Part shown: positions 4,452 to 25,416 of the stretch, piece by piece
Layout: each line of letters opens with the position of its first letter
How positions within the stretch are numbered: position 1 is the first letter of the stretch
NCBI GenBank assembly: GCA_029555965.1
Contig: JAKQHY010000027.1
Coordinates: 8,806-72,805 of the forward strand
Reading direction: 5' to 3'
Length of the DNA: 64,000 nt
Source: Chloroflexota bacterium
GTDB taxonomy: Bacteria; Chloroflexota; Anaerolineae; B4-G1; SLSP01
Notes under the pieces: generated by a model
Told to the model about the DNA's origin: nothing
What the model saw: only the letters and a program-made list of their open reading frames with translations
Database searches by the model: none
Program-made: the position numbers and the translations under genes

Positions 4452-4532
4452 AGTACTCCAATCAAGGAAATGAGTAATAAGAAATGAGTAATGAGTGCGA
4501 TTCATTACTCATTTCTCATTACTTTTTACTCA

Positions 4533-5708: not shown

Positions 5709-5749
5709 TCGTTACCTCCGCAAAAGCGACTAAAGCCGCAAACAAAAAG

Positions 5750-5794: not shown

Positions 5795-5815
5795 TCTAAA
5801 ACTCTTCTGTTGATT

Positions 5816-6871: not shown

Positions 6872-6971
6872 ATCATACTCCTTTGTGTTAGGATATTGAA
6901 ACAGAGAATAGAGACTAGAGATTAGAGAGTAATGCGGAATGACTACTCCCTAATCCCCAATCCCTGGCTCC

Positions 6972-8754: not shown

Positions 8755-9741
8755 TTAAGCCAAGGGTAAGGCGGCCAGCAAGACTCGCACGCTGTTCTCA
8801 ACGTCGTCCCCGTCCACCATCTCGGAAGGGCTGTGGACGAAACGCGAGGGGACGCTCAAACAGCCGCTCGGCACACCGGCGCGCACCAATTGCATCGCCG
8901 AAGCGTCAGTGCTACCGTACAACAAGATTTCCATTTGATAGGGCGACGCTGCCTTTTCGGCGGCAGCGACCAGCAGATCCCGCACCAACGGATGGGCGAT
9001 CATACCGCGATCTTTTACCTTGATCGCTGGCCCTTTGCCCAAGGCGACATCCATCGGTAAGGACTTGGGCGTATCCCCGGTGACGGTCACATCTACCGCA
9101 ATCGCCATGTCCGGATCAATACGGAAAGCCGTTGTGCGCGCCCCCGCCAGGGTAATTTCTTCCTGTGTGCTGAAAACGAAGTAGATGTCGTGGGGCGTCT
9201 CCGGGAGCTGGCGAAGCACTTCAAGCAACACGTAACACCCGATGCGGTCATCCAGGGCTTTGCTGATCAGCCGCCGCCCTCGCGCTTCCAACGGGCCTAC
9301 AAAAACCGCCGGATCGCCCACTTTGACGGGACAATCCTCCCGACCGGTCGCGCCCACATCCAGGTACAGATGTTCCAGCGCCGGCGTTGTCGTAGCATCT
9401 TCGCGCCACTCCACGGCAATCGCGCCGAGCGTGCCATCGGCAAAACGCGCCCGCCCACCAACGCAGTTTGTCGGACGCACTCCGCCGATGGAGGTGAAGC
9501 GCACGAAGCCTTTCTCGTCCACGTAGGTCGCCATCAGGCCGATTTCGTCCATATGCGCGGCGAGCAAGATTTTCTTGCCGCCTTCTTTCCCCCGGCGGCG
9601 CACCACCAGGCTGCCAAGCGGATCCACGCGCACTTCATCGGCAAAGGCCACGACTTCCGCGCGCAGCACTTCCCGAATTTCCTCTTCATACCCCGATGGG
9701 CCAAAAGTTTGTGTGAGTTTGGTTAACAGTTCCAGATTCAC
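8755..9741 (-). CDS. M42 family metallo-aminopeptidase (TET/FrvX/YsdC-like), paralog 1; GTG start
   Basis: 328 aa; N-term ...LTQTFGPSGYEEEIR, HMDEIG, DDR(I/A)GC, QEE motifs; GGAGGaaatgaGTG. Confidence 0.8.
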   Translation of the reverse strand: MNLELLTKLTQTFGPSGYEEEIREVLRAEVVAFADEVRVDPLGSLVVRRRGKEGGKKILLAAHMDEIGLMATYVDEKGFVRFTSIGGVRPTNCVGGRARFADGTLGAIAVEWREDATTTPALEHLYLDVGATGREDCPVKVGDPAVFVGPLEARGRRLISKALDDRIGCYVLLEVLRQLPETPHDIYFVFSTQEEITLAGARTTAFRIDPDMAIAVDVTVTGDTPKSLPMDVALGKGPAIKVKDRGMIAHPLVRDLLVAAAEKAASPYQMEILLYGSTDASAMQLVRAGVPSGCLSVPSRFVHSPSEMVDGDDVENSVRVLLAALPLA

Positions 9742-9755
9742 TCATTTCCTCCGTC

Positions 9756-9828
9756 AATAACCACAGAGAGCACAGAGAAAAAGCCGGGAATCTTTGCGTC
9801 TCTGCGCCTTTGCGTTAAATTTTTTAAT
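9756..9828 (-). repeat. degenerate copy of family-A leader element (cgcaaag and ctctgtg heptamer repeats) directly upstream of M42 paralog 1 start
   Basis: minus strand: ...cgcaaaggcgcagagacgcaaag...ctctgtgctctctgtggttattgacGGAGGaaatgaGTG. Confidence 0.55.
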
Positions 9829-10880
9829 CAGGGACGCAACACGTCCGGCGTCATACGGCGCAAGGATGCCTGCACCAGTTGGAAGGTATGCTCCAGATCA
9901 CTGACGCGCAGCAACGCGATGGGGCTGTGGATGTAGCGGCAGGGTACGGCAATGGTCATCACCGGGACGCCAGCGCGCACGGTATGGATGATGCCGGACT
10001 CGGTGCCGCTGATGCCGGGCTGCTTCAATTGGTACGGAATTCCTTCAGCCTCACCCGTCAGCATCACATGGCGCAGCAGGCGCGGCGGCGTGGTGTACGA
10101 GCGGTCCTTCACCGTAAGGGCCGGCCCCTTCCCTAACTGGGTCGTCGGGCTAACGGCTTCATCCTCTTTGGGTAGGTCATCGGCCACCGTACATTCCAGC
10201 GCCAAGGCGCCATCCGGATCCACCGCATACGTCGCCACCTGCGCGCCGCGCAAGCCGACCTCTTCTTGCACAGTGAAGACGCCGTGCAGGTCAAAGGGCA
10301 GGCGCTCCCCTTGCAGCAACGCCGTCAAAATGGTGCAGCCGGCGCGATCATCGAAAGATTTCCCCATCAGCGACTCACCCAAATTGCGCGGGGTGGTCGC
10401 AAAGGCGACCGGCGTGCCAAGCGGAGCGGCTTCCTCAGCCTCCTCGCGGCTTTTTGCGCCGATATCCACTGCCAGATTATCTACTGCCGGAACCGTTTTA
10501 AAATTGCCGGCGGATGCACGGTGAATGGGCCTGAGTCCGATGACGCCGGGGAGTCGGGCGGATCCCACCAACACGCGCAGACCGGGCAGCAATTGGGAGT
10601 TGACGCCCCCGATAGGCTCCACCCGCAGCGCCCCCTCGCCGGTATATCCCACCACCATCAAGCCAACCTCGTCCATGTGCGCCGTCACCAAAAAGCGTAG
10701 CGCACTCTCGCCAGTGCCGCGCTTCAGGGCGATCAAGTTGCCCAATCCATCCACACGCAGATCGTCCACGTGTCCCTCCAGTAGGGGACGCAGGGCGCAA
10801 CGCATCGGCGTCTCGTTGCCGGAGGTGCTGATGATTTCAGAAAGCGTTAACAGGGTGCTGACCAGGGTTTCGCGGTTCAT
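9828..10880 (-). CDS. M42 family metallo-aminopeptidase, paralog 2
   Basis: 350 aa; HMDEVG, DDRAGC, QEEVG motifs. Confidence 0.8.
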   Translation of the reverse strand: MNRETLVSTLLTLSEIISTSGNETPMRCALRPLLEGHVDDLRVDGLGNLIALKRGTGESALRFLVTAHMDEVGLMVVGYTGEGALRVEPIGGVNSQLLPGLRVLVGSARLPGVIGLRPIHRASAGNFKTVPAVDNLAVDIGAKSREEAEEAAPLGTPVAFATTPRNLGESLMGKSFDDRAGCTILTALLQGERLPFDLHGVFTVQEEVGLRGAQVATYAVDPDGALALECTVADDLPKEDEAVSPTTQLGKGPALTVKDRSYTTPPRLLRHVMLTGEAEGIPYQLKQPGISGTESGIIHTVRAGVPVMTIAVPCRYIHSPIALLRVSDLEHTFQLVQASLRRMTPDVLRP

Positions 10881-11932
10881 GCTTCGTCCTCCCAGCGGGG
10901 CGTATCTCCCGCCGCAAGTTGGGTCACAAAGCCGGTCAACAGGCGCGCGGCGCGCTCAAGGTCGCGCAGGCAAACAGTTTCCACCGGTTGGTGCATATAG
11001 CGAAGGGGGAGTCCGAGCAGGCCGGTCGGGATACCCTCCCGCGCCACCTGAATACCCCAGGCATCGGTGCCGCTGTGTCCCGGCGTCGGTTCCAACGTGT
11101 AAGGGATTTCCTCAACTTTGGCCGCCTTCTCCAGCCGCTCGACGACTTGCGGGTGGAAATTAGGGCCGATGCCAATCGTTGGGCCACTGTTCACTTTGAA
11201 GGTGCCGGTGTCACTGTCGTCATATTGTTTGGCAAAGGTCACATCCAGCGCCACCGCAAGCTGCGGCGCCAAGCCATACGCGCTGGTGATCGCCCCCTTG
11301 ACGCCCACCTCCTCCTGCACGGTTGCCACGGCGTAAACATCCCAGGCATGTAGGCGATCCCGTAGTTTCTCCAAAGCCAATGTCACCACCGCTACAGAGG
11401 CGCGATTATCCAACGCTTTGCCGGCGACCAAGCCGTTTTTTAATTCCAGGAGTTCGCCGGTCATAGTTACATGATCGCCAACACGGACCAGCTTCTTCAG
11501 CTCGTCAGCCGGCAGCCCCACATCCACAAAGAGTTTGTCCCAAGGCAAGACCTTGTCGCGCTCGGCAGGCGGGAGCACATGCGGAGGGCGTGTTCCCACA
11601 ATGCCGGGCAAGGGCCGCACGCCATGCACCAACACTTCCAGCCCCAACACGATCCGGCGATCCATCCCGGACAGCGAGGTCACCCGCAAAAACTCGCCCT
11701 CAATACCGGTGACGATGAGGGCAATCTCATCCATATGCGCCGCCAGCATAACCGCCGGACGAGGGGCCGGCGCGCTTCCGCGTTGTAGTGCCGCCAGGCT
11801 GCCCATAGCATCTATGCGGATTTCATCCGTATAGGGCGTCCACCACGTTTGAATAAGGTCAGCTACCGCTTGCTCACACCCAGAAGGGCCATGGGCTTCA
11901 GAAAGGGCTTTTAAAAGCGCAAATGTTTCCAA
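10877..11932 (-). CDS. M42 family metallo-aminopeptidase, paralog 3 (4-nt overlap with paralog 2)
   Basis: 351 aa; HMDEIA, DNRASV, QEEVG motifs. Confidence 0.8.
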   Translation of the reverse strand: METFALLKALSEAHGPSGCEQAVADLIQTWWTPYTDEIRIDAMGSLAALQRGSAPAPRPAVMLAAHMDEIALIVTGIEGEFLRVTSLSGMDRRIVLGLEVLVHGVRPLPGIVGTRPPHVLPPAERDKVLPWDKLFVDVGLPADELKKLVRVGDHVTMTGELLELKNGLVAGKALDNRASVAVVTLALEKLRDRLHAWDVYAVATVQEEVGVKGAITSAYGLAPQLAVALDVTFAKQYDDSDTGTFKVNSGPTIGIGPNFHPQVVERLEKAAKVEEIPYTLEPTPGHSGTDAWGIQVAREGIPTGLLGLPLRYMHQPVETVCLRDLERAARLLTGFVTQLAAGDTPRWEDEA

Positions 11933-12050
11933 GGGTCTCCTGCCTGATCAAAAAGAGAAAGACACAACATGCATTTGTGTGAGGCGCCGGCGGCCACACC
12001 ACCGCTGGACATTCACCGAACGTGGCGCCAATGAAAGAAAAAGCTGAGTC

Positions 12051-12602
12051 CTAATTGAGCGTGAAAAACGGCGCATTATTCAGCGACAGCGTCGGGGTAA
12101 TGGGGATAGGAGTCGGCTTCGGCTCCGGGGTGAAGGTTGGCGACGGCGGTGGTTCAAGAGTGAAAGTCGGTTCGACAGTCGGCTCCAAAGTTGGAGTCAT
12201 GGTTGGTGTAGCCGTCAGGGTCGGCGTCTCGGTAGGGGTGACCGTCAGGGTCGGCGTCTCAGTAGGGGTGGCCGTTTCGGTTGGCGTTGGCGTTGGCGTT
12301 TCGGTAGGGGTGGCCGTTCCCGTAAAGGTTGGCTCGGGCGTAGGCGTGCGCGTGGGGGGGAACCATTGGGTTGGCGTAGCTTGTAAAGTCTTGAGCGGCA
12401 CCGATGTGCCAGGCCCGACCAAATAGGGCGTTGATGTAGCTTTGGGAGGCGTTGTCGCAGTTAGTGTGGGGCGCGCGGTCGGCGATGGTGAAGAGGGACG
12501 CATCGCCAACGCCACAAATCCCAGGCAGTAACAGGGGATTGTCGCAATGATCACTGCGATCAACACTCGGTAGATGGGCTTTTGTGTCTGCTTACTTTCC
12601 AT
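12051..12602 (-). CDS. Pro/Thr-rich repeat protein with N-terminal membrane anchor
   Basis: MESKQTQKP...[21 protein letters not shown] helix then TPTETPTLT-type repeats; start moved to ATG 12602 because the consensus promoter lies within the longer ORF; no SD. Confidence 0.55.
12200..12330. repeat. in-frame tandem ~30-33 bp DNA repeats encoding the PT-repeat region
   Basis: ccgtcagggtcggcgtctc(g/a)gtaggggtg(a/g)cc repeated, plus gttggcgtt triplets. Confidence 0.7.
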
Positions 12603-12624
12603 AGGATGTACACACTTGACGGCA

Positions 12625-12652
12625 ATAATAACATCATTCAAATAGATGTCAA
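12625..12652 (-). promoter_or_regulatory. near-consensus sigma70 promoter TTGACA-16-TATTAT with ~20-nt leader for PT-repeat protein
   Basis: minus strand TTGACAtctatttgaatgatgtTATTATtgccgtcaagtgtgtacatcctATG. Confidence 0.55.
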
Positions 12653-12865
12653 AGATAGGAGTCGAGAGAAAAATGCGCTTTTAAAGCATTTTACAGCGCC
12701 GGGCTGTAGCAACCTGCTATTACAAACATTCTTTACTTTCAAGGAAACGATGGACTTTGAAACACAAATTTGCTATACTTATGGCTTGTAACAAAGACAA
12801 GCTAAAAGTTCGCCCTAGCCTTGGTATTCACAGGAATGTCAGCGAACCTGCGGGACAATTCAATA

Positions 12866-13209
12866 ATGAAAATCTTTCACCAGGGCACGCAGAGGTCATA
12901 GAGATTTTCTTTTTTCGCTGTACTCTCTGTGCCCTCTGTGACTATTTCAAGGGAATTACCCATTAACCGGCGGTGTACCAGCGGTTGGATGAAAATTTCA
13001 CCACGGAGACACTGAGCACACGGAGCTTTTCTTCATATTTCTCTGTGAACTCTGTGATCTCTGTGGCTATTTTCAAGGGAATTCCTCATTAACTGGCGTT
13101 CACCAGCGGTTGGATGAAAATTTTCACCGCAGAGACGCAGAGGTCGCAGAGATTTTCTTTTTTCTCTGTGTTCTCTGTGCTCTCTGTGGCTATTTTCAGA
13201 GGAGGCTCT
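12866..13209 (+). repeat. tandem array (3 units, 122-126 bp) of family-A leader element; last unit supplies GGAGG RBS of downstream gene
   Basis: units begin atgaaaat(c)tt(t)cacc at 12866, 12988, 13114; each has cagagacgcagag-type triplet, T-rich core, (ctctgtg)x3, ggctattttcaagggaatt, cattaaccggcgttcaccagcggttgg. Confidence 0.85.
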
Positions 13210-13566
13210 ATGAACAACCAAGATGATGAAATTCGCCGTTTGCAACGATTGCGCAATGAACAACTAAGTAGCCGCGATCCTACGGCCAAAGATCGCGCCA
13301 AGATGCAACGCATCTCCAAGCGACACCACAAAAGCCGCCAACCGTTCACCATCAAGCGCATTCTCCGGGATCTCCCGGCCAAATGGTTATTGATGATCAT
13401 CGGTGGCGTGATTGGGATCATCGTCGCGTTGATTATGAATATGATCGTGGATGATCCGTGGGTCAGAATCGCCAGCTATGTCGTCATTGTATTCGGGCTC
13501 GTCGCCGGGCGGATAATGGGCGCGGTGCGCGACTGGGGCGACGAGGATTGGGTTAACAGACGTTAG
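13210..13566 (+). CDS. hypothetical small membrane protein
   Basis: 118 aa from ATG 13210 (GGAGG 6 nt upstream); basic N-terminus then 2 TM helices; longer ORF from 13114 rejected because it translates the repeat. Confidence 0.55.
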   Translation: MNNQDDEIRRLQRLRNEQLSSRDPTAKDRAKMQRISKRHHKSRQPFTIKRILRDLPAKWLLMIIGGVIGIIVALIMNMIVDDPWVRIASYVVIVFGLVAGRIMGAVRDWGDEDWVNRR

Positions 13567-14270
13567 CCCGACAAGTATTCCACCAGCAAACTCAGTCCCA
13601 TACAAACTACCCCGGCGACGGCTGTCTTCAGGCCGTAGATCATCCGGTTCTCCTGCGAAACGCTGGCGAGATAGACCCCCAAGCCAAAGAGCGCCAACAA
13701 GGCCATGCCTAAAGACATATAAAAAGCATAGGTAATCGAAGGCAAGAAAGCGGTTAAGAAGAAAGGAATGACCACCAAAAATGCCGCTAGAAACGGCGAC
13801 AGACCATCGGTGGCGGTGACAATCAACACAGCCGCGCGAGCCGCCTGGCCGATTGTGGATTCGTGCAGATTGGTTAAGGTGCTTCGCTCAAGTTCGGTAA
13901 GTTCACGTTGCCGTTCTGCGGACTCCGTAAGGTAGGCGCCCCATCCTCCAGAAATGCCAATAGCGACTGCGGTGGACAGCCCGGTAACGAGAATCACTTT
14001 GGGGTCCTCTACCCCCACAGCAAACCCGCCCATCACAACCCCCACCATCGTCAACACCCCATCGAAGGAGTTATTGGCAAAAGCTCGCCGCGCAATGTTG
14101 CCCGCCCCTGAAAGTTCCGAATACTCGGCCCAGCGCCGCGCCGTCCGGCCCAGTGACTGTGAAATCCGATTTCCCCTACGTTGGGGGGGCACATCTGTCG
14201 CCGCGGCGCGATCCGTCTCAGTGACACCCTGGGACGCCTGGTCCGCACGTTCAACGTGACCGCTCTCCAT
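13563..14270 (-). CDS. VIT1/CCC1 family iron/manganese transporter-like membrane protein
   Basis: 235 aa; ANNSFDGVLTMVGVVMG motif and C-terminal TM bundle typical of VIT family. Confidence 0.6.
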   Translation of the reverse strand: MESGHVERADQASQGVTETDRAAATDVPPQRRGNRISQSLGRTARRWAEYSELSGAGNIARRAFANNSFDGVLTMVGVVMGGFAVGVEDPKVILVTGLSTAVAIGISGGWGAYLTESAERQRELTELERSTLTNLHESTIGQAARAAVLIVTATDGLSPFLAAFLVVIPFFLTAFLPSITYAFYMSLGMALLALFGLGVYLASVSQENRMIYGLKTAVAGVVCMGLSLLVEYLSG

Positions 14271-14280
14271 GACTTATCTC

Positions 14281-14385
14281 CTCCTCTGAAAATAGCGAAT
14301 AGCGAATAGCAAAATCTCTGCGTCTCTGCGGTGAAAATTTTCATCCAACCGCTGGTGAACCGCCGGTTAATGGTGAATTCCTACG
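14281..14385 (-). repeat. family-A leader element copy (heptamer variant gctattc x3) directly upstream of VIT gene, supplying its RBS
   Basis: minus strand: cattaaccggcggttcaccagcggttggatgaaaattttcaccgcagagacgcagagattttgctattcgctattcgctattttcaGAGGAGataagtcATG. Confidence 0.8.
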
Positions 14386-14473
14386 CAATTCTGAAAAAGT
14401 TCATCAATCGTGTAAATATAGCCGCAATCACCAAATCTTATTGCAGGACAGTCGAAGTCTGTCAACCGCAGAC

Positions 14474-14761
14474 TCAGTCCTGTAACGTCGCCGCGTCGTC
14501 AATAATAATCTTGCCGGCAACCACTTCATCAATGGAATGAACTGCCCCGCCCATTTGTTCGATCAACTGTTCAACCTGCCGGTAGGGAATAGAATCCCCC
14601 TCTACCGTGATTTTGGCATTCTCCACTTTGCGATCCATCTCATAGATACTGATGTTGACCGCCGAAACCCCCGGAAGCTCACTGAGCTGTTCCGCCATCA
14701 AAATGATGTTCGGATCATGCGGCTTAAGCGTATCCAGCACCAAACGACGTAATCTTCCCAT
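14474..14761 (-). CDS. DUF211 family small protein
   Basis: 95 aa; RLVLDTLKPHDPNI...GVSAVNISIYEMD...EGD motif pattern recalled for DUF211. Confidence 0.55.
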   Translation of the reverse strand: MGRLRRLVLDTLKPHDPNIILMAEQLSELPGVSAVNISIYEMDRKVENAKITVEGDSIPYRQVEQLIEQMGGAVHSIDEVVAGKIIIDDAATLQD

Positions 14762-14951
14762 CTCAACACTCCCTTCACTAAAGCAGCCCTATTAACAAAA
14801 ACAGCCATCCAATCATCACCAGATTGGATGGCTTGTTTTCATAGAAATATGTGTATAAGTCTTGCAGGTCTCTAATACAGAAAAGTACAACTCACTCCTG
14901 TCGTGGCGTTACGACATAAAAATTATACCCGAACTCTCCCGGATGTCAATT

Positions 14952-16139
14952 TCATGACAGCACTCCCAATGTCCGGCCAATCTCGGCAAATTTTCCCAGG
15001 CCAAAATCGAGATCGGCACGGGAGAGGGCGGCTGACACCATCACCCGGATCCGCGCCTGCCCCTGTGGCACGGTGGGGAAGCCCAGCGGCATCGCAAAGA
15101 CGCCGGCCGCGAACAAGTGCCGGCTGAAAGTCTGCGCCAGCTTGACGTCGCCCAACATCACCGGCGTAATGGGCGTGACGCTGTGGCCCACATCGAAGCC
15201 CAATGTCTGCATCTGTCCCTTGAAGTAACGAGTGTTTTCCCACAACCGCTCTACCAGCTCGGTGGACGCGGCGAGCATCTCCACCGCCGCCATACACGCG
15301 GCAGTGTCCGCGGCGGTGACGGCGCTGGAAAACAGGAAGGGACGCGCTTTCTGCCGCAGATAGTCCACGATGACTTTTTTGCCTGCGACCACGCCGCCAA
15401 CCACACCGAACGCTTTAGAGAACGTGCCAACCTCCACGTCGAACTTGCCGTGTAGTCCAAAGTGATCGACGATGCCGCGTCCGCCCCGGCCCAACACGCC
15501 TTCACCATGCGCGTCGTCTACCATCGTCAGCACACCATACCGCTCCGCCACCTCGTACAGCTTGTCCAACGGCGCAACGTCGCCGTCCATCGAGAAAACG
15601 CCATCCGTCACCATCAACCCACGCCGATGCTGCGGCAGATATTCCTTAATTTTGGACTCCAAATCGGCCGGATCGCAGTGTTCATAAACCACAATCTTGG
15701 CGCGACTTAAACGAGCGCCATCAATGATGCTGGCATGGTTAAGACGGTCGGAGAAAATTACGTCCTCCTTGCCCACCAGGGGCGGCAACGCGGCCTGGTT
15801 CGCCAGGAAACCGCTTTGCACGTAGAGCGCATCCTCCACATTCTTGAACGCTGCAATCTTCTCTTCTAACTCCTTGTGAATCGCCAACGTGCCGGCGATG
15901 GAGCGCACCGCCGTCGGGCCGGCCCCATAACGATCCAGCGCCTCTTTAGCCGCCTGGATCAGCCAGGGATCGTCGGCCAGGCCGAGGTAGTTGTTGGTGC
16001 AGAGGTTGAGCACCCGCTGCCCATCCACCACCATCCACGCACCCGGCGCGGACTCAATTGTGCGCAAATTGATGAACAGGCCACTGTCTTGTAATGCCTT
16101 CACTTCTTCCGCAATCCACAGCAACTTCGCTTCTGTCAT
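14952..16139 (-). CDS. kbl: glycine C-acetyltransferase (2-amino-3-ketobutyrate CoA ligase)
   Basis: 395 aa; CTNNYLGLADDP, SDRLNHASIIDG, DDAHGEGVLG, PLP-lysine TFSKAFG; closest by eye to Kbl rather than BioF. Confidence 0.75.
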   Translation of the reverse strand: MTEAKLLWIAEEVKALQDSGLFINLRTIESAPGAWMVVDGQRVLNLCTNNYLGLADDPWLIQAAKEALDRYGAGPTAVRSIAGTLAIHKELEEKIAAFKNVEDALYVQSGFLANQAALPPLVGKEDVIFSDRLNHASIIDGARLSRAKIVVYEHCDPADLESKIKEYLPQHRRGLMVTDGVFSMDGDVAPLDKLYEVAERYGVLTMVDDAHGEGVLGRGGRGIVDHFGLHGKFDVEVGTFSKAFGVVGGVVAGKKVIVDYLRQKARPFLFSSAVTAADTAACMAAVEMLAASTELVERLWENTRYFKGQMQTLGFDVGHSVTPITPVMLGDVKLAQTFSRHLFAAGVFAMPLGFPTVPQGQARIRVMVSAALSRADLDFGLGKFAEIGRTLGVLS

Positions 16140-16159
16140 CGGTCACTCCTTACAAAATA

Positions 16160-16220
16160 GGTTCAACGGATTGAACGAATTTAACGGAAAAACCGGTAGA
16201 TTCCGTTTTATCCGTTGAGA
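16160..16220. promoter_or_regulatory. nested inverted-repeat operator-like site in kbl/argF divergent region
   Basis: CAACGGA-ttgaacgaatt-TAACGGA-aaaaccggtagat-TCCGTTTTA-TCCGTTG. Confidence 0.35.
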
Positions 16221-16428
16221 AGATTTTTTTTACATCTCTGTCAGTATAGCATGGACTGCACCGCCCCGACAACTGGCGTCAACGCCATAACTGCCTGACA
16301 TGTGTAACAGTTCAAAGGCCCGACAGGTTGACTAACCCGGCTTCATCGTGGCAATTTGGGGCATTTTTACTGGATTGATTGTTCATGGTATACTATGGAT
16401 CATACCAATTCACAGGAGGCACACCCTT

Positions 16429-17361
16429 ATGAAACATTTCCTCTCTTTGGCGCACCTCACTCCGGCAGAGATGCAACACATCCTCGATTTGTCGTTAAGC
16501 ATCAAGCAGGAGTGGAAAGCCGGCAACGCGCCACCCTATCTGAAAAACAAGGTATTGGGTATGATTTTCCAGAAACCGAGCTTGCGCACCCGCGTCTCCT
16601 TCGACGTAGCGATGCTGCAACTGGGCGGGAACGGGTTGTATCTGTCGCCCAACGAGATTCAGTTGGGCAAGCGGGAAAGCACAGCCGATGTGGCCCGCGT
16701 CATCTCCCGTTACGTAGACGTGATTATGGCGCGCGTCTTCGCCCACGCGGATGTGGTCGAACTGGCAAAGTACGCCACCGTCCCCGTCATCAACGGATTG
16801 TCCGATTACTCTCATCCCTGCCAGGGCATGGCTGACTTCCTGACCATTCTGGAACACAAAGGGGGGTTCCAGGGCAAGAAACTGACCTATCTGGGCGACG
16901 GCAACAACGTGGCAACGTCGCTCCTGTTGGGGGCCGCACTGTTGGGGATGAATTTCACCATCGCCGCCCCGCGTGGCTACGAAGTACACCCGGCGACCTG
17001 GGCGTTGGGCCAGCAATTGGCCGCGCAGACCGGCGCGCACCTGGCCGCCACCTACGATCCGCTGGCTGCCGCCGCCGATGCCGACGTGCTGTACACCGAT
17101 ACCTGGACTTCAATGGGCCAGGAAGAAGAGTCCGAACAGCGCCGCAAAATCTTCCCTCCGTATCGCGTGGACGAGAGCAAACTGCGCTGCGCCAAACCCG
17201 ATGTCATTGTCATGCACTGCCTACCGGCGCATCGCGGCGAAGAAATTACCGACGCCGTCGCCGATGGCCCACACTCGGCCTTGTTCGACCAAGCCGAAAA
17301 TCGTCTGCATGCGCAAAAAGGCATCCTGGTCTGGGCATTGGAAGCAGAGAATTGCAAATAG
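16429..17361 (+). CDS. argF: ornithine carbamoyltransferase
   Basis: SLRTR, HPCQ, HCLP, TDTWTSMG motifs; start set at MKHF (GGAGG RBS) rather than upstream ATG. Confidence 0.88.
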   Translation: MKHFLSLAHLTPAEMQHILDLSLSIKQEWKAGNAPPYLKNKVLGMIFQKPSLRTRVSFDVAMLQLGGNGLYLSPNEIQLGKRESTADVARVISRYVDVIMARVFAHADVVELAKYATVPVINGLSDYSHPCQGMADFLTILEHKGGFQGKKLTYLGDGNNVATSLLLGAALLGMNFTIAAPRGYEVHPATWALGQQLAAQTGAHLAATYDPLAAAADADVLYTDTWTSMGQEEESEQRRKIFPPYRVDESKLRCAKPDVIVMHCLPAHRGEEITDAVADGPHSALFDQAENRLHAQKGILVWALEAENCK

Positions 17362-17407
17362 CGAATTAAAAATTACGAATCACCTGAAGACAATAACGAG
17401 GTAACGC

Positions 17408-19687
17408 ATGGCAGGGAACCGCTTACGCTTCGACGATGCAATACAGAAGGCCAATGACCTGGTCTGGGCAGAAAAATGGGACGACGCCGTCAAAGCCTAC
17501 CGGCGCGCGCTGGCAGAGTTCCCTGACGACGTTTCTACGCTATTGGGCTATGCTTGGGCTTTGCTCAACGCCAGCCAGACAGACGAGGCGCTCGCCGTGT
17601 ACGAGCGCCTCATCACACTCAATGCCGCTGATCCCGGGCCTTACGAGCGTATCGCTGAGATTCGTGAAAAACGAGGGGAAGCCGCCGATGCCGCGACGAT
17701 GTATTTTGAGGCAGCCCAGCGTTACAAGAAGCAAAACCTGGGGGCCAAAATGACGGCCTCCTTGGAGGCCACCGTACGCCTTACCCCCAACAACGATCGA
17801 GCCTGGGCCGAACTGCTGCAACAATATCAGCGAGAACGCGAGGTGGACAAAGCCGTGCAGGCCGCACTCTGGCTGGCGTATCTTTACCAGGACGATCACC
17901 ATGACTGGGCCGTCGAAGTATGCCGCCAGATGCAGCAGTTCATCCCGCACGAGCCGCTTATCGGGCAAGCCATGATGCTGCTGCAAAGCAACCGTGGACT
18001 GCCCAAACCCGCCGCCGCCCATGCTCAGACGGACGCGACCTCAGATGAGTTCACCGAAGGCGTCATCGAAGATGCCGGCAGTCCAGTAGATATTGCGCGG
18101 CAGCGCGCGCTGGCAAAACTGGCGGAATCCATCTTCGACGAAGATAAACCCCAGGTGCAGGGACTGTCCCAAATGGAAGTGGACATGCTCATCGGCAAAG
18201 CCATTGACGCTCAAACGCGCGGCGATTACCAGGTCTCACAACAAGCCTACGAACAACTCCTACAAGCGGGCGTCTCAATGCCCTCGATCCACTTCAACCT
18301 GGGCCTGCTCTACAAAGAACAAATGCGCTTCAGCGATGCCATTGTCCAGTTTGAACGCTCCATCACCGACCCGGAATATGTCCTGAGCAGCAACTACACG
18401 ATGGGGGAATGTTATCAGGCCCAGGGCAATTTCAAACAGGCGCTCCAATACTTCCTGGAAGCGGTGAAAATCGTGGACCTGGCCACCATCGAACATGCCC
18501 AGGCCAACGATCTGATCCGGGTTTATGAAGGACTTGCCCAAAACTTGATCAACACTGGCGAACCGGAGCGCATCCAGCAATTGGGTGAAACACTCGTCAA
18601 CTTCCTGGGGCAGCGCGGCTGGGAAGAAGAGTCCATAAAAGCTCGCAAACGACTGGATGGCATGGCGCGCTCCGGCGTGGTGCTGAGCCTGGGTGAATTG
18701 ATCAGCCTCTCCGGCTCGGAGGATGTGCTCAAGTCGCTGGCCATGGCGCAGGAATACCAACGCCGGCACAAAGTGTACAACGCCCTGGAAGAATTATTTC
18801 ACGCCATTGGCAAGGCGCCGGATTACCTGCCCCTCCACCACCTGTTGGCGACGCTCTTTCAGGAAACCGGCAACATCGAACAATCCGTTGAAAAACTGCA
18901 TACCATTGCCAGCGCCCACGAAATCCGCGGCGAAACGCCCCAGGCGCTGGCAACCTACCACGAGATTTTGCAAATATCGCCCCTCGACATCAACGTCCAT
19001 AAGCGCGTCATTGATCTGATGGTACAACATGGTCGCATTGACGACGCCTTGAATCAATATCGAGAACTGGCCGACGCCTATTATCAATTGGCGCAACCGG
19101 AACGCGCGCGCGAAACGTATGTCGAGGCCCTGCGGGTGGCGCCACGCGGCACCGATCCGCGCCAATGGGAAGTGCGCATCCTTCACAAAATGGCCGACCT
19201 GGACATGCAGCGCCTCAACTGGCAAGCCGCTATCAAAAGCTACGAAGAAATCGTCCGCATCGCCCCGGACGACGAGCGCGCCCACCTGGGACTGTTCCGC
19301 CTCTATCCCCGCACCGGACGGCCGCATCTGGGCATGGGAGCTCTCGACAAGCTGATCAGGCACCACCTGGAAAAACAACGGGTTGATAAAGTCCTGGCGA
19401 TCTTAGAAGACCTGATGAGCAGTGAACCAGACAATCCTCCCCTCCGCGCGCGAGCGGCCCAGTTATATCTCAACATGGGCAACCGCGACAAGGCCCTGGA
19501 ACATCTGGACATCCTCGGCGACTTGCAGTTGGAGGCCGGTCAGAAAGACGCTGCCAGCAAAACTATCGAGGCGATCCTGGCGCTTAACCCGCCCAACCGG
19601 CAGGATTACGTTGAACTATACCGCGAAATGACCGGGCGAGAGCCGCCGGCGCCGCGCGGCACCGGGGCGTTGCCCCCGCGAATTTAG
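17408..19687 (+). CDS. TPR repeat-containing protein
   Basis: 759 aa; repeated A/Y/L TPR-like helices; 6 nt before cdaA. Confidence 0.75.
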   Translation: MAGNRLRFDDAIQKANDLVWAEKWDDAVKAYRRALAEFPDDVSTLLGYAWALLNASQTDEALAVYERLITLNAADPGPYERIAEIREKRGEAADAATMYFEAAQRYKKQNLGAKMTASLEATVRLTPNNDRAWAELLQQYQREREVDKAVQAALWLAYLYQDDHHDWAVEVCRQMQQFIPHEPLIGQAMMLLQSNRGLPKPAAAHAQTDATSDEFTEGVIEDAGSPVDIARQRALAKLAESIFDEDKPQVQGLSQMEVDMLIGKAIDAQTRGDYQVSQQAYEQLLQAGVSMPSIHFNLGLLYKEQMRFSDAIVQFERSITDPEYVLSSNYTMGECYQAQGNFKQALQYFLEAVKIVDLATIEHAQANDLIRVYEGLAQNLINTGEPERIQQLGETLVNFLGQRGWEEESIKARKRLDGMARSGVVLSLGELISLSGSEDVLKSLAMAQEYQRRHKVYNALEELFHAIGKAPDYLPLHHLLATLFQETGNIEQSVEKLHTIASAHEIRGETPQALATYHEILQISPLDINVHKRVIDLMVQHGRIDDALNQYRELADAYYQLAQPERARETYVEALRVAPRGTDPRQWEVRILHKMADLDMQRLNWQAAIKSYEEIVRIAPDDERAHLGLFRLYPRTGRPHLGMGALDKLIRHHLEKQRVDKVLAILEDLMSSEPDNPPLRARAAQLYLNMGNRDKALEHLDILGDLQLEAGQKDAASKTIEAILALNPPNRQDYVELYREMTGREPPAPRGTGALPPRI

Positions 19688-19693
19688 TATGGA

Positions 19694-20530
19694 ATGTGGG
19701 ATCTGAACTGGTTGCTTCAACGATTGACCTGGGCAGACATCTTGGATATATCCCTGGTGGCTGTCCTTTTTTTCTGGCTCTTCTACACCATTCGCGGGAC
19801 CCGCGCCCTGCCCTTAGTGCGCGGGTTAACCGTCCTCTTGATCTCGCTGGCGCTGCTCTCACGAGTAGTGGAACTTCGGGCCTTCTCCTGGCTGATCCAA
19901 CAATTGCTGCCAGCCTTCCTCGTGGCGCTGCCGGTGCTGTTTCAGCCGGAATTACGCCGCGCCTTCGAGCAACTGGGCCGCGGGCGACTGACCCGACTGT
20001 CGCAGGATGAAAATGAATGTATCGCGCGCGCCGTTGACGCCGTGGTCGAGGCCAGCGCCTACATGGCCGCCCGTCACATTGGCGCATTGATCGTCTTTGA
20101 ACGCCATACCGGCCTCAAAGAATACACCGAAACCGGCATCCCGCTCAACGCCCAAGTCACCCCCGAACTGCTCACCACCCTGTTTGATCACCACACCATC
20201 CTCCACGATGGCGCCGTTATCATCCACAAAGGTCGGCTGGTAGCGGCGGCCTGCGTGCTGCCCCTCACTGCCGCCTTCCTGGCCGACCGTGAGCTGGGGC
20301 TGCGGCACCGCGCAGCGCTGGGCGTCACCGAGGACACTGACGCGGTCACGGTCGTCGTCTCCGAAGAACGCGGCGCCATTTCCCTGGCCCATAATGGTCG
20401 CATTATCCGCGATGTGGACGCGCCGCGCCTCGCCTCGATCTTACATGCTTTCCTGCTACCCAAACCGCGCGCGTCCGGCTTCCGGCTTTTTCGGCAACGT
20501 CTTCCCCAGGAAGAAAGGGAAAACACATGA
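19694..20530 (+). CDS. cdaA: diadenylate cyclase CdaA (membrane DisA_N/DAC domain)
   Basis: 3 N-terminal TM helices (VWYVIYKL-like LFFWLFYTIRGT), DGA...RHRAALG...TDAVTVVVSEERGAISL DAC motifs. Confidence 0.85.
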   Translation: MWDLNWLLQRLTWADILDISLVAVLFFWLFYTIRGTRALPLVRGLTVLLISLALLSRVVELRAFSWLIQQLLPAFLVALPVLFQPELRRAFEQLGRGRLTRLSQDENECIARAVDAVVEASAYMAARHIGALIVFERHTGLKEYTETGIPLNAQVTPELLTTLFDHHTILHDGAVIIHKGRLVAAACVLPLTAAFLADRELGLRHRAALGVTEDTDAVTVVVSEERGAISLAHNGRIIRDVDAPRLASILHAFLLPKPRASGFRLFRQRLPQEERENT

Positions 20531-21780
20531 GCCGTTGGTTAGGACAAAATCTGAGCTTGCTGCTCATTTCCATCCTGTTAGCCTTCTTCTTCTGGGCCGT
20601 CGCTGTCGAGGCGGAAGACCCGACGGTGGAGCGCGTCTACGGCACCCCCATCCCCGTAGAGATTCAAGGCTTGCCCGAAAACCGGATCAAATACGGGCAG
20701 GACGTCAATCGCGTCCAGGTGGAATTGCGCGCTCCACGCTCCATCTGGGAGAGCCTGACCACCGCCGACATCAATGCCTACATTGACCTCTCTGAAGCGC
20801 CAACCGGGGTGGTGACAGCGCCCGTGCAGATCAAAATCGGGCCTCAACCCGTGCGCCTGTTGAGCGTAAAACCGGCGGAGATCACCCTGAATATCGAACC
20901 CTTCATCCAGAGAGAGATCACCATCACCGTCAAAGTGAACGGTGCGCCCCAGGCAGGGTACCGGATGAGCGCACCGGAAGTGATGCCCCAGGTAGCCCGC
21001 ATCCAGGGGCCGGCCTCTTTCGTGCAACAGGTCAATATCGTCCAAGCTACGGTTGAAATTGAGGGCGCCCAGAGCAACCGCCGCAACGACTACGAGCTGA
21101 CCGCCCTCGATGCCGAGGGGCAGCCGGTTGCCAACGTGACCCTCCTGCCCAAGTCAGTCAACATCAACGTACCCGTCACCTCCCTTGGCTACATTCACGA
21201 TTTACCGGTTAACGTCTCCTTGGAGGGTCAACCAGCGGCAGGGTATCGTATTGCCGATTTGCAGATGCTCCCCCCGGTCATCAAAGTCTACGCGACTACC
21301 CGCGCCGTCAACGAAATACCAGGCTTCTTGCAAACGCAACTCATCAACATTGAAGGGTTGACCCAAACCTTGACGGCCACCGTGGACTTGCAAATTCCTA
21401 GTGGGCTGGTGACCATTCAACCCACCCGTCCAACCGTCACCGCCGTCCTGAGCATCGAAGCTATCAAAAGCGGCCTGAAGTTGGACATTCAGCCCGAAAT
21501 CCGCGGCCTCCTCCCGGCCTACACCGCCACCATTGGCATCGAATCCGTCGTCGTGATTCTCAACGGGCCACTGCTGATTATGGAAACCCTGCCCATCACC
21601 GCCGTCAGTCTTACCCTGGACTTGACCAATCTGCAACCCGGCGAATACAATCTGGCCCCTGTGGTGATCGCGCCGGACAAGATTGCCATTCAGAACCTGC
21701 TGCCAGAAACAGTTCCCGTCAAGATCGAAAAACTTCCTACACCACCGACCCCTCCGCCAACAGAAGACGTGCAACCTTAG
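20527..21780 (+). CDS. cdaR: CdaR/YbbR-like regulator of CdaA (YbbR repeats)
   Basis: 417 aa; N-terminal TM then 4 YbbR-like beta repeats; 4-nt overlap with cdaA; Pro-rich tail. Confidence 0.7.
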   Translation: MSRWLGQNLSLLLISILLAFFFWAVAVEAEDPTVERVYGTPIPVEIQGLPENRIKYGQDVNRVQVELRAPRSIWESLTTADINAYIDLSEAPTGVVTAPVQIKIGPQPVRLLSVKPAEITLNIEPFIQREITITVKVNGAPQAGYRMSAPEVMPQVARIQGPASFVQQVNIVQATVEIEGAQSNRRNDYELTALDAEGQPVANVTLLPKSVNINVPVTSLGYIHDLPVNVSLEGQPAAGYRIADLQMLPPVIKVYATTRAVNEIPGFLQTQLINIEGLTQTLTATVDLQIPSGLVTIQPTRPTVTAVLSIEAIKSGLKLDIQPEIRGLLPAYTATIGIESVVVILNGPLLIMETLPITAVSLTLDLTNLQPGEYNLAPVVIAPDKIAIQNLLPETVPVKIEKLPTPPTPPPTEDVQP

Positions 21781-21837
21781 AATCTATCCGAAAATTCGTT
21801 TTGGCTCGTGATTTGCGCCTAAAGGCGCGGTTGAGGG

Positions 21838-21882
21838 GGTGTTTTTTCGTGGGCGAGCTACGCCCGCCCACGAAAAAACACC
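21838..21882. repeat. 18-bp-stem perfect palindrome (family B: ggtgttttttcgtgggcg / cgcccacgaaaaaacacc), bidirectional terminator-like between cdaR and sufU
   Basis: Perfect inverted repeat; flanking motif caaaagcgacttcagccgcaa shared with copy at 5750-5794. Confidence 0.75.
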
Positions 21883-22014
21883 TTCCCAAAAGCGACTTCA
21901 GCCGCAAGGGTCGGCCTGGCGGCGCATCGTTGCTATAATTTTCGGATAGGTTCTTAACAAAAGCGGCGGAAGAAGGCCAGGCCTCTCCCGCCGCATGCTT
22001 CTCCGGCGCAACCG

Positions 22015-22398
22015 CTACAGCTTGCCGGCTTCTTTCAAACCCAACTTCAGTGCATTCAATGGTAATGTCGCGCACTTGACCCGGCCCATGCTCAGCCGCA
22101 CGCCGCCCATCATCGCTTCGATGTCCGCCAGGCCCATCGCGGCCACTTCCTCCGGTGTCTTGCCCACTGCCATCTCGGTAAACATCGAAGCGGACGCCAT
22201 GCTCACCACACAGCCCTGCCCTTCAAACATCACCGCCGTAATCCGGCCCTCAGCGTCCAAGCGGGCCGTCATGTGAACTACATCCCCACAAGTGGGGTTA
22301 TCCATCTCCACATCCACGTCAGCATCAGGCAACACCCCGAAGTTTTCAGGGTTGTGGTAATGATCCAACAACTGTTCACGGTATAAATCACTGCTCAT
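22015..22398 (-). CDS. sufU: SufU/IscU-like Fe-S cluster assembly scaffold (sulfur acceptor)
   Basis: 127 aa; HYHNPENFG, CGD, GQGC motifs. Confidence 0.8.
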   Translation of the reverse strand: MSSDLYREQLLDHYHNPENFGVLPDADVDVEMDNPTCGDVVHMTARLDAEGRITAVMFEGQGCVVSMASASMFTEMAVGKTPEEVAAMGLADIEAMMGGVRLSMGRVKCATLPLNALKLGLKEAGKL

Positions 22399-22403
22399 CT
22401 TTG

Positions 22404-23630
22404 TTATCTCCCCAGAATTTTCACGACCCGGTGCAACCCGGCGACCAGAGCGTCCACATCCTCTTTGTCGTTATACAGATAAAAACTGGCGCGTGCGCTG
22501 GCCGGGATGCCGAACCGCTCGTGAAGCGGCTGCGCGCAATGATGCCCGGCGCGAATGCAGATGCCATCCTCGTCCAGCAACGCGGCGATGTCGTGCGGAT
22601 GCGCCGCCTCAAGCCAGAACGACACCACGCCCCCTCGCTCCCCCAGACCAGGGCCAAGGATGTGGATGCCCGGCACTTCCGCCAACCGTGGGAGCGCGTA
22701 AGCGAGCAACTCCTGCTCATGCGCGTGAATCGCCTCCATGCCGATGGCGCCGAGGAAATCCACCGCCGCGCCCAGCCCCACTGCTTCGGCAATCGGCGGC
22801 GTGCCCGCCTCAAATTTGTGGGGTAAATCGTTCCACTTGGACTGATAGCGCTTTACCGTGCGGATCATATCGCCCCCATAAAGGAACGGCGGCATCGCGT
22901 CTAGCAGTTCGCCCCGGCCCCAGAGGATGCCCATCCCCGGTCCGCACAACTTGTGGCCGGAAATCGCCAAAAAGTCGGGGCCTAACGCCTGCACATCCAC
23001 AGGTTGGTGCGGCGCAGCCTGCGCGGCGTCCATCACCACCAACGCGCCGGCGGCGTGTGCCAGCTCCGCCACCTGCGTCACCGGCGGCAGCGTGCCGAGC
23101 ACATTGGACATCACCGAACACGCCACCAGCTTCGTGCGCCCATCCGCCAGCAGCGGCGGCAGAGCGGCAAGGTCGAGCCGCCCATCGTTCGTGACCGGTA
23201 CGTAGGCCAGCTCCGCTCCCTGTCGCAATGCCAATTGCTGCCAGGGCACCAGGTTGGCGTGATGCTCCATCTCTGTGATCACGATCCGATCCCCGGCGTG
23301 GATGTGCTCTATCCCCCAGCTATACGCGACCAAGTTCAGGCCTTCCGTCGCATTGCGGACGTAGATCACTTCGGCGGGATCGGGTGCGTTGATGAAGCGG
23401 GCCAACTTAACCCGCGCGCCCTCATACGCCTCCGTGGCTTCCTCCGCCAGTGCGTACAAACCCCGGTGGACGTTCGCGTAACTGTGTGTGTACACGCGCG
23501 TCATCGCGGCGATGACGGCGCGCGGCTTCTGGGAACTCGCCGCGCTATCCAAAAACACCAGCCGCTTTCCGTGAATCTTCCGCTCGAAAATCGGAAACTC
23601 CCGACGAATGGCTTCAACGTCTAAAGCCAT
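22404..23630 (-). CDS. sufS: cysteine desulfurase SufS (class V aminotransferase, group II)
   Basis: 408 aa; PLP-lysine SGHKLCGPGMGILWG, catalytic C in RAGHHCAQP. Confidence 0.85.
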   Translation of the reverse strand: MALDVEAIRREFPIFERKIHGKRLVFLDSAASSQKPRAVIAAMTRVYTHSYANVHRGLYALAEEATEAYEGARVKLARFINAPDPAEVIYVRNATEGLNLVAYSWGIEHIHAGDRIVITEMEHHANLVPWQQLALRQGAELAYVPVTNDGRLDLAALPPLLADGRTKLVACSVMSNVLGTLPPVTQVAELAHAAGALVVMDAAQAAPHQPVDVQALGPDFLAISGHKLCGPGMGILWGRGELLDAMPPFLYGGDMIRTVKRYQSKWNDLPHKFEAGTPPIAEAVGLGAAVDFLGAIGMEAIHAHEQELLAYALPRLAEVPGIHILGPGLGERGGVVSFWLEAAHPHDIAALLDEDGICIRAGHHCAQPLHERFGIPASARASFYLYNDKEDVDALVAGLHRVVKILGR

Positions 23631-23649
23631 ACACTGCCTCCCTTGAAAA

Positions 23650-23775
23650 TAAAGACTGTTTCACGCAAAGGCGCAAAGACGCAAAGTAAAAAACAAAGCC
23701 TTGGCGAGCTTGGCGGCTTTGCGTGAAATTTTCATCCCACCGCTGGTGAACGCCGGTTCATGATGATCATTTTTC
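23650..23775 (-). repeat. family-A leader element copy (heptamer variant ctttgcg x3) directly upstream of sufS, supplying GGGAGG RBS
   Basis: minus strand: ...ccggcgttcaccagcggtgggatgaaaatttcacgcaaag...actttgcgtctttgcgcctttgcgtg...tattttcaaGGGAGGcagtgtATG. Confidence 0.8.
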
Positions 23776-23931
23776 ACCCACAACATAGCCTAGTATAACA
23801 CATAAACCAAAAAAGTACCTTCTTTAATATCTCTGGAGCGCGCGTAAAATGACCCATTTGGGTACTAGACGCGCCCGCGCCCGTCTTTTATAATGCAAAA
23901 GAATCATCCGCCAAAAAAAGGAGAAAAAAAC

Positions 23932-25341: not shown

Positions 25342-25366
25342 TCAGCCGATTGCCTCCTTATGAGAA

Positions 25367-25416
25367 CATGAAACGTGAAACGTGATGTTGACCGACATCA
25401 CGTTTCACGTTTCATG
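25367..25416. repeat. perfect 21-bp inverted repeat with 8-nt loop between glnA and GAF sensor kinase gene; no flanking U-tract
   Basis: catgaaacgtgaaacgtgatg-ttgaccga-catcacgtttcacgtttcatg; TACAAT -10-like hexamer 10 nt downstream. Confidence 0.8.

Follow-up and report, generated by a model that had tools for sequence, protein, structure and literature searches.

REP2/CREN of Neisseria and the inverted repeats (IR) of Borrelia plasmids are dispersed repeats of ~100-150 nt that lie directly upstream of open reading frames (ORFs) and supply expression signals (PMC3184786). Here we describe a family of repeat units found at gene starts in a 64,000-nt stretch of DNA from a Chloroflexota bacterium of the class Anaerolineae (assembly GCA_029555965.1, contig JAKQHY010000027.1, positions 8,806 to 72,805 of the forward strand), referred to below as the window. 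A sequence-only reading of part of this stretch had described a leader element upstream of four genes and taken it for a structured regulatory 5'-untranslated region. We arrive, with only modest confidence, at a different view, in which the units form a clade-limited family of non-autonomous, leader-forming insertion cassettes.

Among described systems, REP2/CREN and the Borrelia IR appear to be the closest in kind. Like them, the units lack terminal inverted repeats, contain internal inverted repeats, lie in the orientation of the gene and supply its ribosome-binding site. The known repeats, however, carry a promoter and the ATG, whereas here the start codon and the spacer before it belong to the gene; the REP2 genes form a co-regulated set, whereas the genes found here have no common function. 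A separate conserved sufS promoter upstream of the unit, the occurrence of arrays and an exchangeable core set the family further apart, as does its phylum, and we see no sequence relationship. The modular design recalls the pneumococcal BOX elements (boxA - boxB(n) - boxC), which are non-autonomous, transcribed with their neighbours and able to modulate expression. The resemblance is one of design only, in that conserved end modules surround variable internal repeats (here 2-9 repeats of 7-9 nt per arm); the inner modules of BOX are 45 nt, and BOX elements are not bound to start codons, are not strictly co-oriented and provide no Shine-Dalgarno (SD) sequence.

The repetitive extragenic palindromes known as REP, BIME and REPIN are mobilised by RAYT proteins. 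They share with our units the short intergenic palindromes and the mosaic arrays, and cores of the form TCGTAGT...ACTACGA do occur in three comparison loci (L006, L051 and L053; L-numbers such as L001 or L065 are labels of comparison loci). REPs, however, lie near the 3' end of the upstream ORF at a variable distance from the downstream ORF (PMC3733652), while our units stand at a fixed distance from the downstream start and their 41-nt box has no GTAG/CGTC-tagged palindrome. Miniature inverted-repeat transposable elements (MITEs), such as the Correia elements of Neisseria and those of P. gingivalis, are likewise small, non-coding and multi-copy, with presence/absence differences between relatives; some elements of this type carry regulatory signals, and a P. 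gingivalis MITE is described as having an internal minisatellite, i.e. internal tandem repeats (PMC4596501). Unlike MITEs, the units have no terminal inverted repeats and no clear target-site duplication, are strictly oriented and have an apparent target within the SD; the sole inverted repeat noted is the internal TGAAAAT/ATTTTCA pair around the core. The short tandemly repeated repetitive (STRR) sequences of filamentous cyanobacteria are intergenic 7-nt tandem repeats of many families, often in inverted blocks. No conserved 5' and 3' end modules and no supply of an SD are known to us for STRR sequences, which also differ from the present repeats in phylum and in period (7-9 nt here).

Repeat units in the window

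A 22-mer of the conserved 5' box, ACCAGCGGTTGGATGAAAATTT, occurs four times in the window (12977+, 13102+, 14335- and 23726-) against 0 expected by chance. A covariance model derived from 33 distinct box copies of 41 nt picked out exactly these four (E <= 1.2e-11). The four full copies are spread over three gene leaders, and no fifth match was found in the 64-kb window with filters off and up to E = 10. Two truncated relatives, one of them the 9756 locus, and one decayed unit are further members in the window. The 3' box, CTATTTTCARRGGAGG, has seven matches with up to 3 mismatches, against 1.19 expected. Every copy in the window has the same orientation as its gene and adjoins its start, with the SD lying within the 3' box; in these respects the earlier description holds. 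Of the four loci said to share the module, the leaders of the genes at 13210, 14270 and 23630 do so, whereas the locus at 9756 lacks the conserved 5' part and is a truncated relative. The proposed core of three heptamers was right as to the tandem repeats, but their period is 7-9 nt, they number 2 to 9 copies, and the VIT1 core has no hairpin.

The leader of the gene at 13210 is made of three tandem units, which Tandem Repeats Finder reports as 2.7 copies of a 126-nt period at 12866-13198 with internal 7-9-nt repeats. Upstream of the array lies a candidate promoter, TGGACT-17-TATACT with a TG extension (12751-12779, + strand; consensus match 9/12 with TG). Unit 1 (12827-12954, +) contains a decayed 5' box TTCACAGGAATGTCAGCGAACCTGCGGGACAATTCAATAATGAAAATCTTTCACC, a heptamer hairpin core and the 3' box GACTATTTCAAGGGA, and is called decayed because the box model misses it. 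In unit 2 (12955-13080, +) ATTACCCATT, the palindrome and the box (56.6 bits, E 1.2e-11) are followed by a CACGGAG/CTCTGTG hairpin core and the 3' box GGCTATTTTCAAGGGA, which abuts the next unit directly; its predicted fold is -46.8 kcal/mol in sense (z = -5.3) and -42.9 kcal/mol in antisense (z = -5.0). The gene-proximal unit 3 (13081-13205, +) has ATTCCTCATT and the box (64 bits), a CGCAGAG/CTCTGTG hairpin core and the 3' box GGCTATTTTCAGAGGAGG, which is the SD of ATG 13210, with a fold of -53.9 kcal/mol (z = -5.5) and a predicted TGAAAAT/ATTTTCA closing stem. The ORF downstream (13210-13566, +), previously read as a membrane protein gene, encodes a small protein with no match in a Pfam search. 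A longer ORF (13114-13566, +) begins at an ATG within the 5' box (GGATGAAAATT) and runs in frame via unit 3 into the 13210 gene (150 aa versus 118 aa). We considered a leader peptide starting at the box ATG and rejected it, because no SD precedes it and because repeat number and the 7-9-nt period shift the frame between copies.

A single unit precedes VIT1 (14280-14378, -; gene ATG 14270), with the box (64.5 bits), a core of two CGCAGAG and three GCTATTC repeats without a hairpin (z = 0.03) and the SD CAGAGGAGG. Next to it lies a remnant of the native VIT1 leader (14379-14423, -), aligned to the unit-less locus L073, that contains TTTTTCAGAATTGCGTAGGA, the left half of a split SD, and a candidate -10, GGCTATATT, probably an element of the VIT1 promoter. 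The single sufS unit (23637-23766, -; upstream of ATG 23630; 58.2 bits) starts slightly 5'-truncated with TCATCATGAACC and has the box, a CGCAAAG/CTTTGCG hairpin core and the SD CAAGGGAGG. Further upstream is the extended -10 of the sufS promoter, TGTTATACT (23792-23800, -), which is kept in relatives with and without a unit. The palindrome of the sufS unit, TGAAC-CGGC-GTTCA (23745-23758, -), fits the GAAC-N4-GTTC core of Gram-positive-type LexA boxes; a LexA box was rejected as probably a coincidence, most copies having TAAC-N5-GTTC.

A decayed unit (16146-16236, or 16146-16251 with the candidate promoter, -) lies between the promoter-like TGCTATACT and an aminotransferase start (ATG 16139). 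It consists of GATGTAAAAAAAATCTTCTCAACGG, a decayed box end, an AACGGAT-type hairpin and CCTATTTTGTAAGGAG, and its core type is that of units L031 and L037 of another species. As at 12751-12779, a -10 of the TGnTATACT type is found upstream of the sufS and aminotransferase leaders too. The 5'-truncated relative (9748-9819, -; GTG 9741) has AAAATTTAACGCAAAG..., a heptamer hairpin and the 3'-box-like GGTTATTGACGGAGG, with a fold of -24.5 kcal/mol (z = -1.8); like unit 1 at 12827-12954, it is not detected by the box model. Peptidase_M42 genes lie on both sides of it, and the region 8755-11932 (-) holds three tandem M42 glutamyl-aminopeptidase paralogs with a heptamer hairpin unit only between the second and third. 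Pfam searches of the neighbouring genes in the window identified VIT1, Aminotran_5 (SufS/NifS-type, 23630-), three M42 peptidases, DUF211 and glutamine synthetase, which confirms these gene identities.

Anatomy of the unit

An alignment of 66 distinct copies describes a non-coding unit of about 100-135 nt. Its 5' module is ATTCnTCATT, then a small palindrome of 10-14 nt (AACCGGCGGTT, CGCCGTTGGCG, AACGCGGTGCGTT and others), then CACCAGCGGTnGGATGAAAAT, in detail CACCAGCGGT-n-GGATGAAAAT(T); CCAGCGGTnGGATGAAAAT is the most invariant stretch of the family, with 17 invariant columns. The 3' module is (G)CTATTTTCA-RR-GGA, i.e. the unit ends in ...CTATTTTCARRGGA, and |GG comes next. Past this point there is either GG-N5-9-start codon or, directly, the ATTC of the next unit. 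The stretch that follows GGA|GG, with spacer and start codon (ATG, GTG or TTG), varies between copies and agrees with the orthologs that have no unit. TGAAAAT, which ends the box, and ATTTTCA, with which the 3' box opens, are complementary, and predicted folds place the two in a closing stem around the core.

The core falls into subfamilies: CGCAAAG/CTTTGCG, CGCAGAG/CTCTGTG, CACAAAG/CTCTGTG, AACGGAT/ACTTTGG and one of CGCAGAG with 3-9 copies of GCTATTC that has no hairpin. Many cores are strong hairpins with loops of 10-15 nt followed by CUAUUUUCA, and a large minority of units have none. In other species the core is a hairpin that is either ordinary or GTAG-tagged and REP-like. In binchicken_co20_429 (L006, L007, L021, L051 and L053) the core is a GTAG-tagged REP-like double hairpin, TTCGTAGT...GCGCTTTAGCGC...ACTACGAAC, and therefore the slot between the two boxes can host REP/REPIN-type palindromes. 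Several other features were looked for in the box and rejected. In a longer hairpin (TTCACCAG/UUGGAUGAA) the n of GGTnGG shows no covariation with the base it would pair with, and a long-range AACCG/CGGTT pairing breaks down in the AACGC...GCGTT subfamily. A sigma-70, sigma-54 or extracytoplasmic function (ECF) promoter does not fit either, as the hexamer spacing is wrong, GG-N10-GC is missing in the CGCC subfamily and a promoter scan flags nothing. The earlier view that the element is more than a terminator and no CRISPR array is upheld. A CRISPR array would have identical direct repeats of 24-48 nt at regular intervals with unique spacers, whereas here there are at most 3 units of 126 nt, their variable parts are tandem heptamers and each array ends at a gene start.

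Distribution and orientation

We used a 20-mer of the box to scan a single genome of each species; comparison was made over 8-kb flanks of contigs of metagenome-assembled genomes (MAGs). The scan found 58 loci, 53 of them in 13 Anaerolineae/Chloroflexota MAGs (23 in R24_97 and 10 in Zod_Metabat.1307); the remaining five, in unrelated taxa, stand alone and show nothing else of the unit. On these loci the box model gave 77 matches, about 70 of them in the 13 MAGs, with arrays of up to 4 boxed units. At about 80 sufS loci of more distant Chloroflexi the box model found no copies apart from two close relatives, and judging from these searches the family is confined to one clade of Anaerolineae. 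A scan of viral contigs returned one match only, inside coding sequence and without other unit features; a phage origin of the units was rejected, this match being a coding-sequence coincidence. The MAG that holds the window was also recovered in JGI sample 3300010356. The searchable literature gave us no report of repeats like these from Anaerolineae or Chloroflexi.

Orientation can be assessed in 54 of the 58 terminal units; of the others, three run off the end of their locus and one is continued by a variant unit. A co-oriented ORF start follows directly in 49 of the 54 (within about 7-16 nt of the SD), and box and start codon lie a median 111 nt apart. The family-wide count agrees with the earlier claim of fixed orientation. 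The 44 downstream proteins examined carry 63 Pfam families, none of which is found in more than two proteins, with no common theme and no transposase among them. Some units come after divergent genes, 3' of promoter-like TGnTAnnnT sites, and others make up the whole spacer between co-oriented genes (at least 8 cases, with the upstream ORF ending 122-165 nt before the start codon). The CGCAAAG subfamily, to which the sufS unit belongs, numbers 13 copies, each about 130 nt long, which precede 13 different, unrelated genes in 3 species and share 91% mean identity; this argues that the unit moves as a whole. Arrays mix core subfamilies, and the more decayed units lie farthest from the gene (12827-13205 in the window; L035). 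Three comparison contigs (L064, L070 and L074) break off within a unit at 35-45 nt before sufS.

Orthologous sites with and without a unit

The sufS promoter, TTTATGTGTTATACT, is identical in the window, in L065 (R24_97, 91% protein identity), which has no unit, and in L069 (79%), which has two divergent units. In L065 and in L075 (92%), which has the promoter too, the unit-less leader is 45 nt long with its own SD, GAAGAGGA|GGTAGGGCATG, and the site is also empty in L067, L076, L078 and L158. The unit of the window is of the CGCAAAG type, that of L074 (89%) has another core, and L071 carries a box-less heptamer hairpin. Without its unit the window sufS leader reads GTGAAAAATGA|GGCAGTGTATG, which aligns gap-free to GCTGAAGAGGA|GGTAGGGCATG; deletion of the unit gives back ...GGA|GG... 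with unchanged spacing. At VIT the empty ortholog L073 (87%) has ...TTTTCAGAACATATATTTTGGA|GGATGATACATCATGGAGAGC (TTTTGGA|GGATGATACATCATG), and the window has ...TTTTCAGAATTGCGTAGGA|[unit]|GGAGATAAGTCATGGAGAGC, in short form GCGTAGGA|unit|GGAGATAAGTCATG. The third site is the sufS-nifU spacer, which is 5-7 nt in the window (5 nt) and L065, holds a boxed unit with TAGAGGA on both sides in L076, and holds box-less units in L157. RRGGA precedes nearly every unit. A metagenome scan with SufS gave mostly relatives of 50-60% identity, with only L076 and L078 informative, and a homolog search with the UPF0182 protein of L048 (nearest 64% identity) gave no extra filled/empty pair.

By these comparisons the unit sits between a promoter (or an upstream cistron) and the start codon, contains the SD and is polymorphic between relatives. 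We infer that it lies 3' of the promoter because the -10 element is conserved at orthologous sites with and without a unit. The filled and empty sites, together with the RRGGA flanks, the mixed-core arrays and the 13-copy subfamily at 91% identity, point to copy-and-paste of whole units into SD sequences in sense orientation, with the SD rebuilt by the unit. The part of the sequence-only reading that saw a dispersed family that duplicates or transposes is borne out.

A candidate insertion cassette

On balance, then, we lean towards a cassette that behaves like mobile DNA landing in ribosome-binding sites, unlike a riboswitch. In the mechanism that the junctions suggest, a unit would enter the SD of a gene in sense orientation between GGA and GG, splitting the old SD, and its ...TTTTCARRGGA together with the resident GG would rebuild an extended SD without changing its spacing to the start codon. 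The rebuilt SD would again be a target, so that insertions could pile up on the gene side and build arrays in which the oldest and most decayed units are farthest from the gene. The unit would join the messenger RNA (mRNA) leader or the intercistronic spacer and could serve as a portable translation-initiation region, an AU-rich tract and a strong 8-nt SD complementary to CCUCCUUU, the SD immediately following a stable helix that UGAAAAU/AUUUUCA closes. Effects on mRNA stability or read-through are also possible.

Several observations weigh against such a cassette. No transposase or recombinase partner was identified in the 8-kb MAG-contig flanks or among the 44 downstream proteins. The unit ends, ATTCnTCATT... 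and ...CTATTTTCARRGGA, are not complementary, so terminal inverted repeats are lacking. Nearly every unit has RGGA on either side, but the flanking RR positions usually differ, and instead of a target duplication this RGGA could belong to the unit itself. The orthologous comparison covers three sites (sufS, VIT and sufS-nifU) with diverged leaders and is between species only; contigs with the exact proteins of the window have identical leaders in all sampled strains, and ongoing mobility is not seen. Five of the 54 assessable units are orphans with no adjacent ORF (L001, L015, L021, L030 and L053). Microhomology recombination or gene conversion between SD regions could yield the same pattern without a dedicated enzyme, and the status of intercistronic units as leaders, like any functional effect, is putative. 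With regard to the orphans, those at L015 (2362-2560) and L053 (3944-4100) are each followed by a perfect hairpin and the apparent end of a convergent gene, and may be remnants of lost genes or small transcripts.

A more specific form of the cassette explanation, in which the units are an undescribed site-specific mobile DNA that targets the SD itself (GGA|GG, sense strand) and carries a replacement SD, is plausible, though we would not count on it. Every insertion would then be tolerated and would recreate its own target, leaders and spacers would have grown by serial accretion, and the invariant CCAGCGGTnGGATGAAAAT with the adjoining palindrome would be the recognition site of a recombinase or transposase.

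Alternative explanations

A portable cassette of promoter plus ribosome-binding site, of the Neisseria REP2/CREN or Borrelia IR type, is the alternative that survives best, although we regard it as unlikely. Here the 3' box GGCTATTTTCA would act as a -10, a short transcript would start a few nt before the SD, and the heptamers and 5' box would modulate promoter strength. GGC-TATTTT does resemble candidate -10s of the clade (GGC-TATATT, GGC-TACAAT and TGC-TATACT), at least 8 pairs of co-oriented genes have nothing but the unit between them, and repeats with promoter, ribosome-binding site and ATG directly before genes are documented (PMC3184786). TATTTT is nevertheless weak as a -10, with no TG extension and no conserved -35; it lies anywhere from about 27 to 110 nt away from the 5' box, and the 3' box was not flagged by the promoter scan. 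The strong cross-species sufS promoter lies upstream of the unit and serves the gene in relatives that have none, and the internal 3' boxes of arrays would fire into the next unit.

The folding data bear on the regulatory 5'-untranslated region first proposed, in which the hairpin with CUAUUUUCA would be a conditional terminator or a mask of the SD and the 5' box a sensor. Many cores are very stable (z about -5) and flanked by GAAAAU/AUUUUCA like an A-tract/hairpin/U-tract terminator, yet about 40% of units have cores without a stable fold, as at 14280-14378 (z = 0.03), and a terminator scan flagged no unit. A hairpin favoured by G-U pairs in the sense strand only, as had been claimed, is seen in units 12955-13205 (core -40.1 versus -28.9 and -30.6 versus -27.3 kcal/mol) but not in the sufS unit, whose core slightly prefers antisense (sense -29.3, antisense -31.1), nor in the family, where sense folds better in 24 of 58 distinct units and antisense in 34 (Wilcoxon p = 0.11). 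In unit 3 UUCCUC at the 5' end (13081-13087) is complementary to the unit's own SD, GAGGAG (13197-13203), and is paired with it in the minimum-free-energy fold (13081-13212); other copies carry ATTCATC, ATTCGTC or ATTACCC there, and this pairing is seen in one unit only. Across units the SD is predicted to be somewhat more accessible than in shuffled controls rather than masked (mean unpaired probability 0.37 versus 0.29, p = 0.008).

Pairing in the small palindrome is better kept, with a mean outer stem of 2.9 bp versus 0.78 in shuffles and 89.9% of cells paired over 3-5 bp. Two-sided changes are found in 7 cells, traceable to one or two lineages, and G:T mismatches (7) equal A:C mismatches (6), so the palindrome is not assignable to RNA rather than DNA. 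Random orientation without compensatory change, which was to refute the earlier reading, is not what we find: 49 of 54 units follow the gene, and the palindrome shows these few two-sided changes. An Rfam scan of the 64-kb window, the Infernal search that had been suggested, gave no family match, only a tRNA reaching the gathering score, and over 12700-14500 even E <= 10 returned only noise (miRNA, snoRNA and lncRNA families at 12-17 bits). The downstream genes are functionally unrelated and, as we read the empty sufS and VIT sites, close relatives express the same genes without a unit. With no strand preference, unfolded cores, an ambiguous palindrome and an unmasked SD, a riboswitch, thermometer or attenuator loses its main support, and we consider a structured leader RNA very unlikely.

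The invariance of CCAGCGGTnGGATGAAAAT over 17 columns argues for sequence-specific recognition rather than structure and raises the idea of a binding site of a global regulator that has spread and wired many genes into one regulon. The regulator could be a CsrA-type RNA-binding protein on GGA-UGAAAAU ... AUUUUCA-RR-GGA (candidate target GGAUGAAAAU...AUUUUCARRGGAGG) or a DNA-binding dimer on the inverted repeat of the box, TTCAYC-N8-GRTGAA. GGAUGA resembles GGAUGU, the core selected for CsrA by systematic evolution of ligands by exponential enrichment (SELEX), one GGA overlaps the SD, and the REP2 genes of Neisseria are co-regulated. Conservation of the box could, however, just as well stem from recent spread or from a transposition enzyme that recognises it, and decayed boxes stand before intact genes (12827-12881 and 16212-16236), which makes the box dispensable for expression; a regulon of this kind seems to us improbable.

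Finally, spread without dedicated mobility, in a heptamer-expanding genome where SD-proximal microhomologies (TATTTTCARRGGA) give rise to replication slippage, unequal crossing-over and gene conversion, would fit the box-less heptamer hairpins in many window spacers (4469-4540, 6903-6965, 25365-25416), the variation in heptamer copy number (2 to 9), the nascent duplication of TTTGCTCTCTC (x2) in the L076 sufS leader and the 11-14-nt 3' box at every junction, which could mediate recombination, but we consider it very unlikely, because ~130-nt units that are 91% identical at 13 unlinked, unrelated genes in three species, and arrays of unrelated core types, need copy-and-paste to distant sites and not local slippage.

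Other repeats in the window

Box-less tandem-heptamer hairpins are found in spacers of the window at 4469-4540, 6903-6965, 25365-25416, 2354-2401 and 3621-3668, mostly just 5' of the SD of the next gene or just past a stop codon. Their arms include AATGAGT/TCATTAC, AGAGAAT-like repeats, AACGTGA x3 (perfect 22-nt arms) and AGCTTCC. Hairpins built from heptamers are a general trait of this genome, beyond the boxed family. A second repeat family is an A-tract/hairpin/T-tract palindrome, GGGTGTTTTTyCG...GCGGGC...GCCCGC...CGAAAAAACACC, present in the window at 5749-5795 and 21813-21907 and also in L002, L026, L049 and L035. Between convergent genes it looks like a bidirectional terminator, and in other species the same hairpin type is also nested as the core of boxed units. 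A 30-nt tandem repeat (12212-12333; 2.1-2.5 copies, 86-94% matches) lies in a 196-aa ORF (12051-12641, -) with no Pfam match.

Implications

The units have practical consequences for the study of these bacteria. They break short-read MAG assemblies exactly at gene starts, and they can mislead the calling of start codons and small ORFs, as for the 150-aa ORF from 13114. They may also offer a compact, portable and strong ribosome-binding module for a phylum without genetic tools. The preference for 7-9-nt tandem repeats parallels that of the cyanobacterial STRR and may point to a common mutational or selective cause. If the cassette explanation is true, a large share of the translation-initiation regions of widespread uncultured anaerobic-digester bacteria would be second-hand, and the fast growth and change of leaders between close species would be explained. 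The family would then illustrate clearly how, in nature, mobile DNA can be tolerated because it replaces the signal it destroys.

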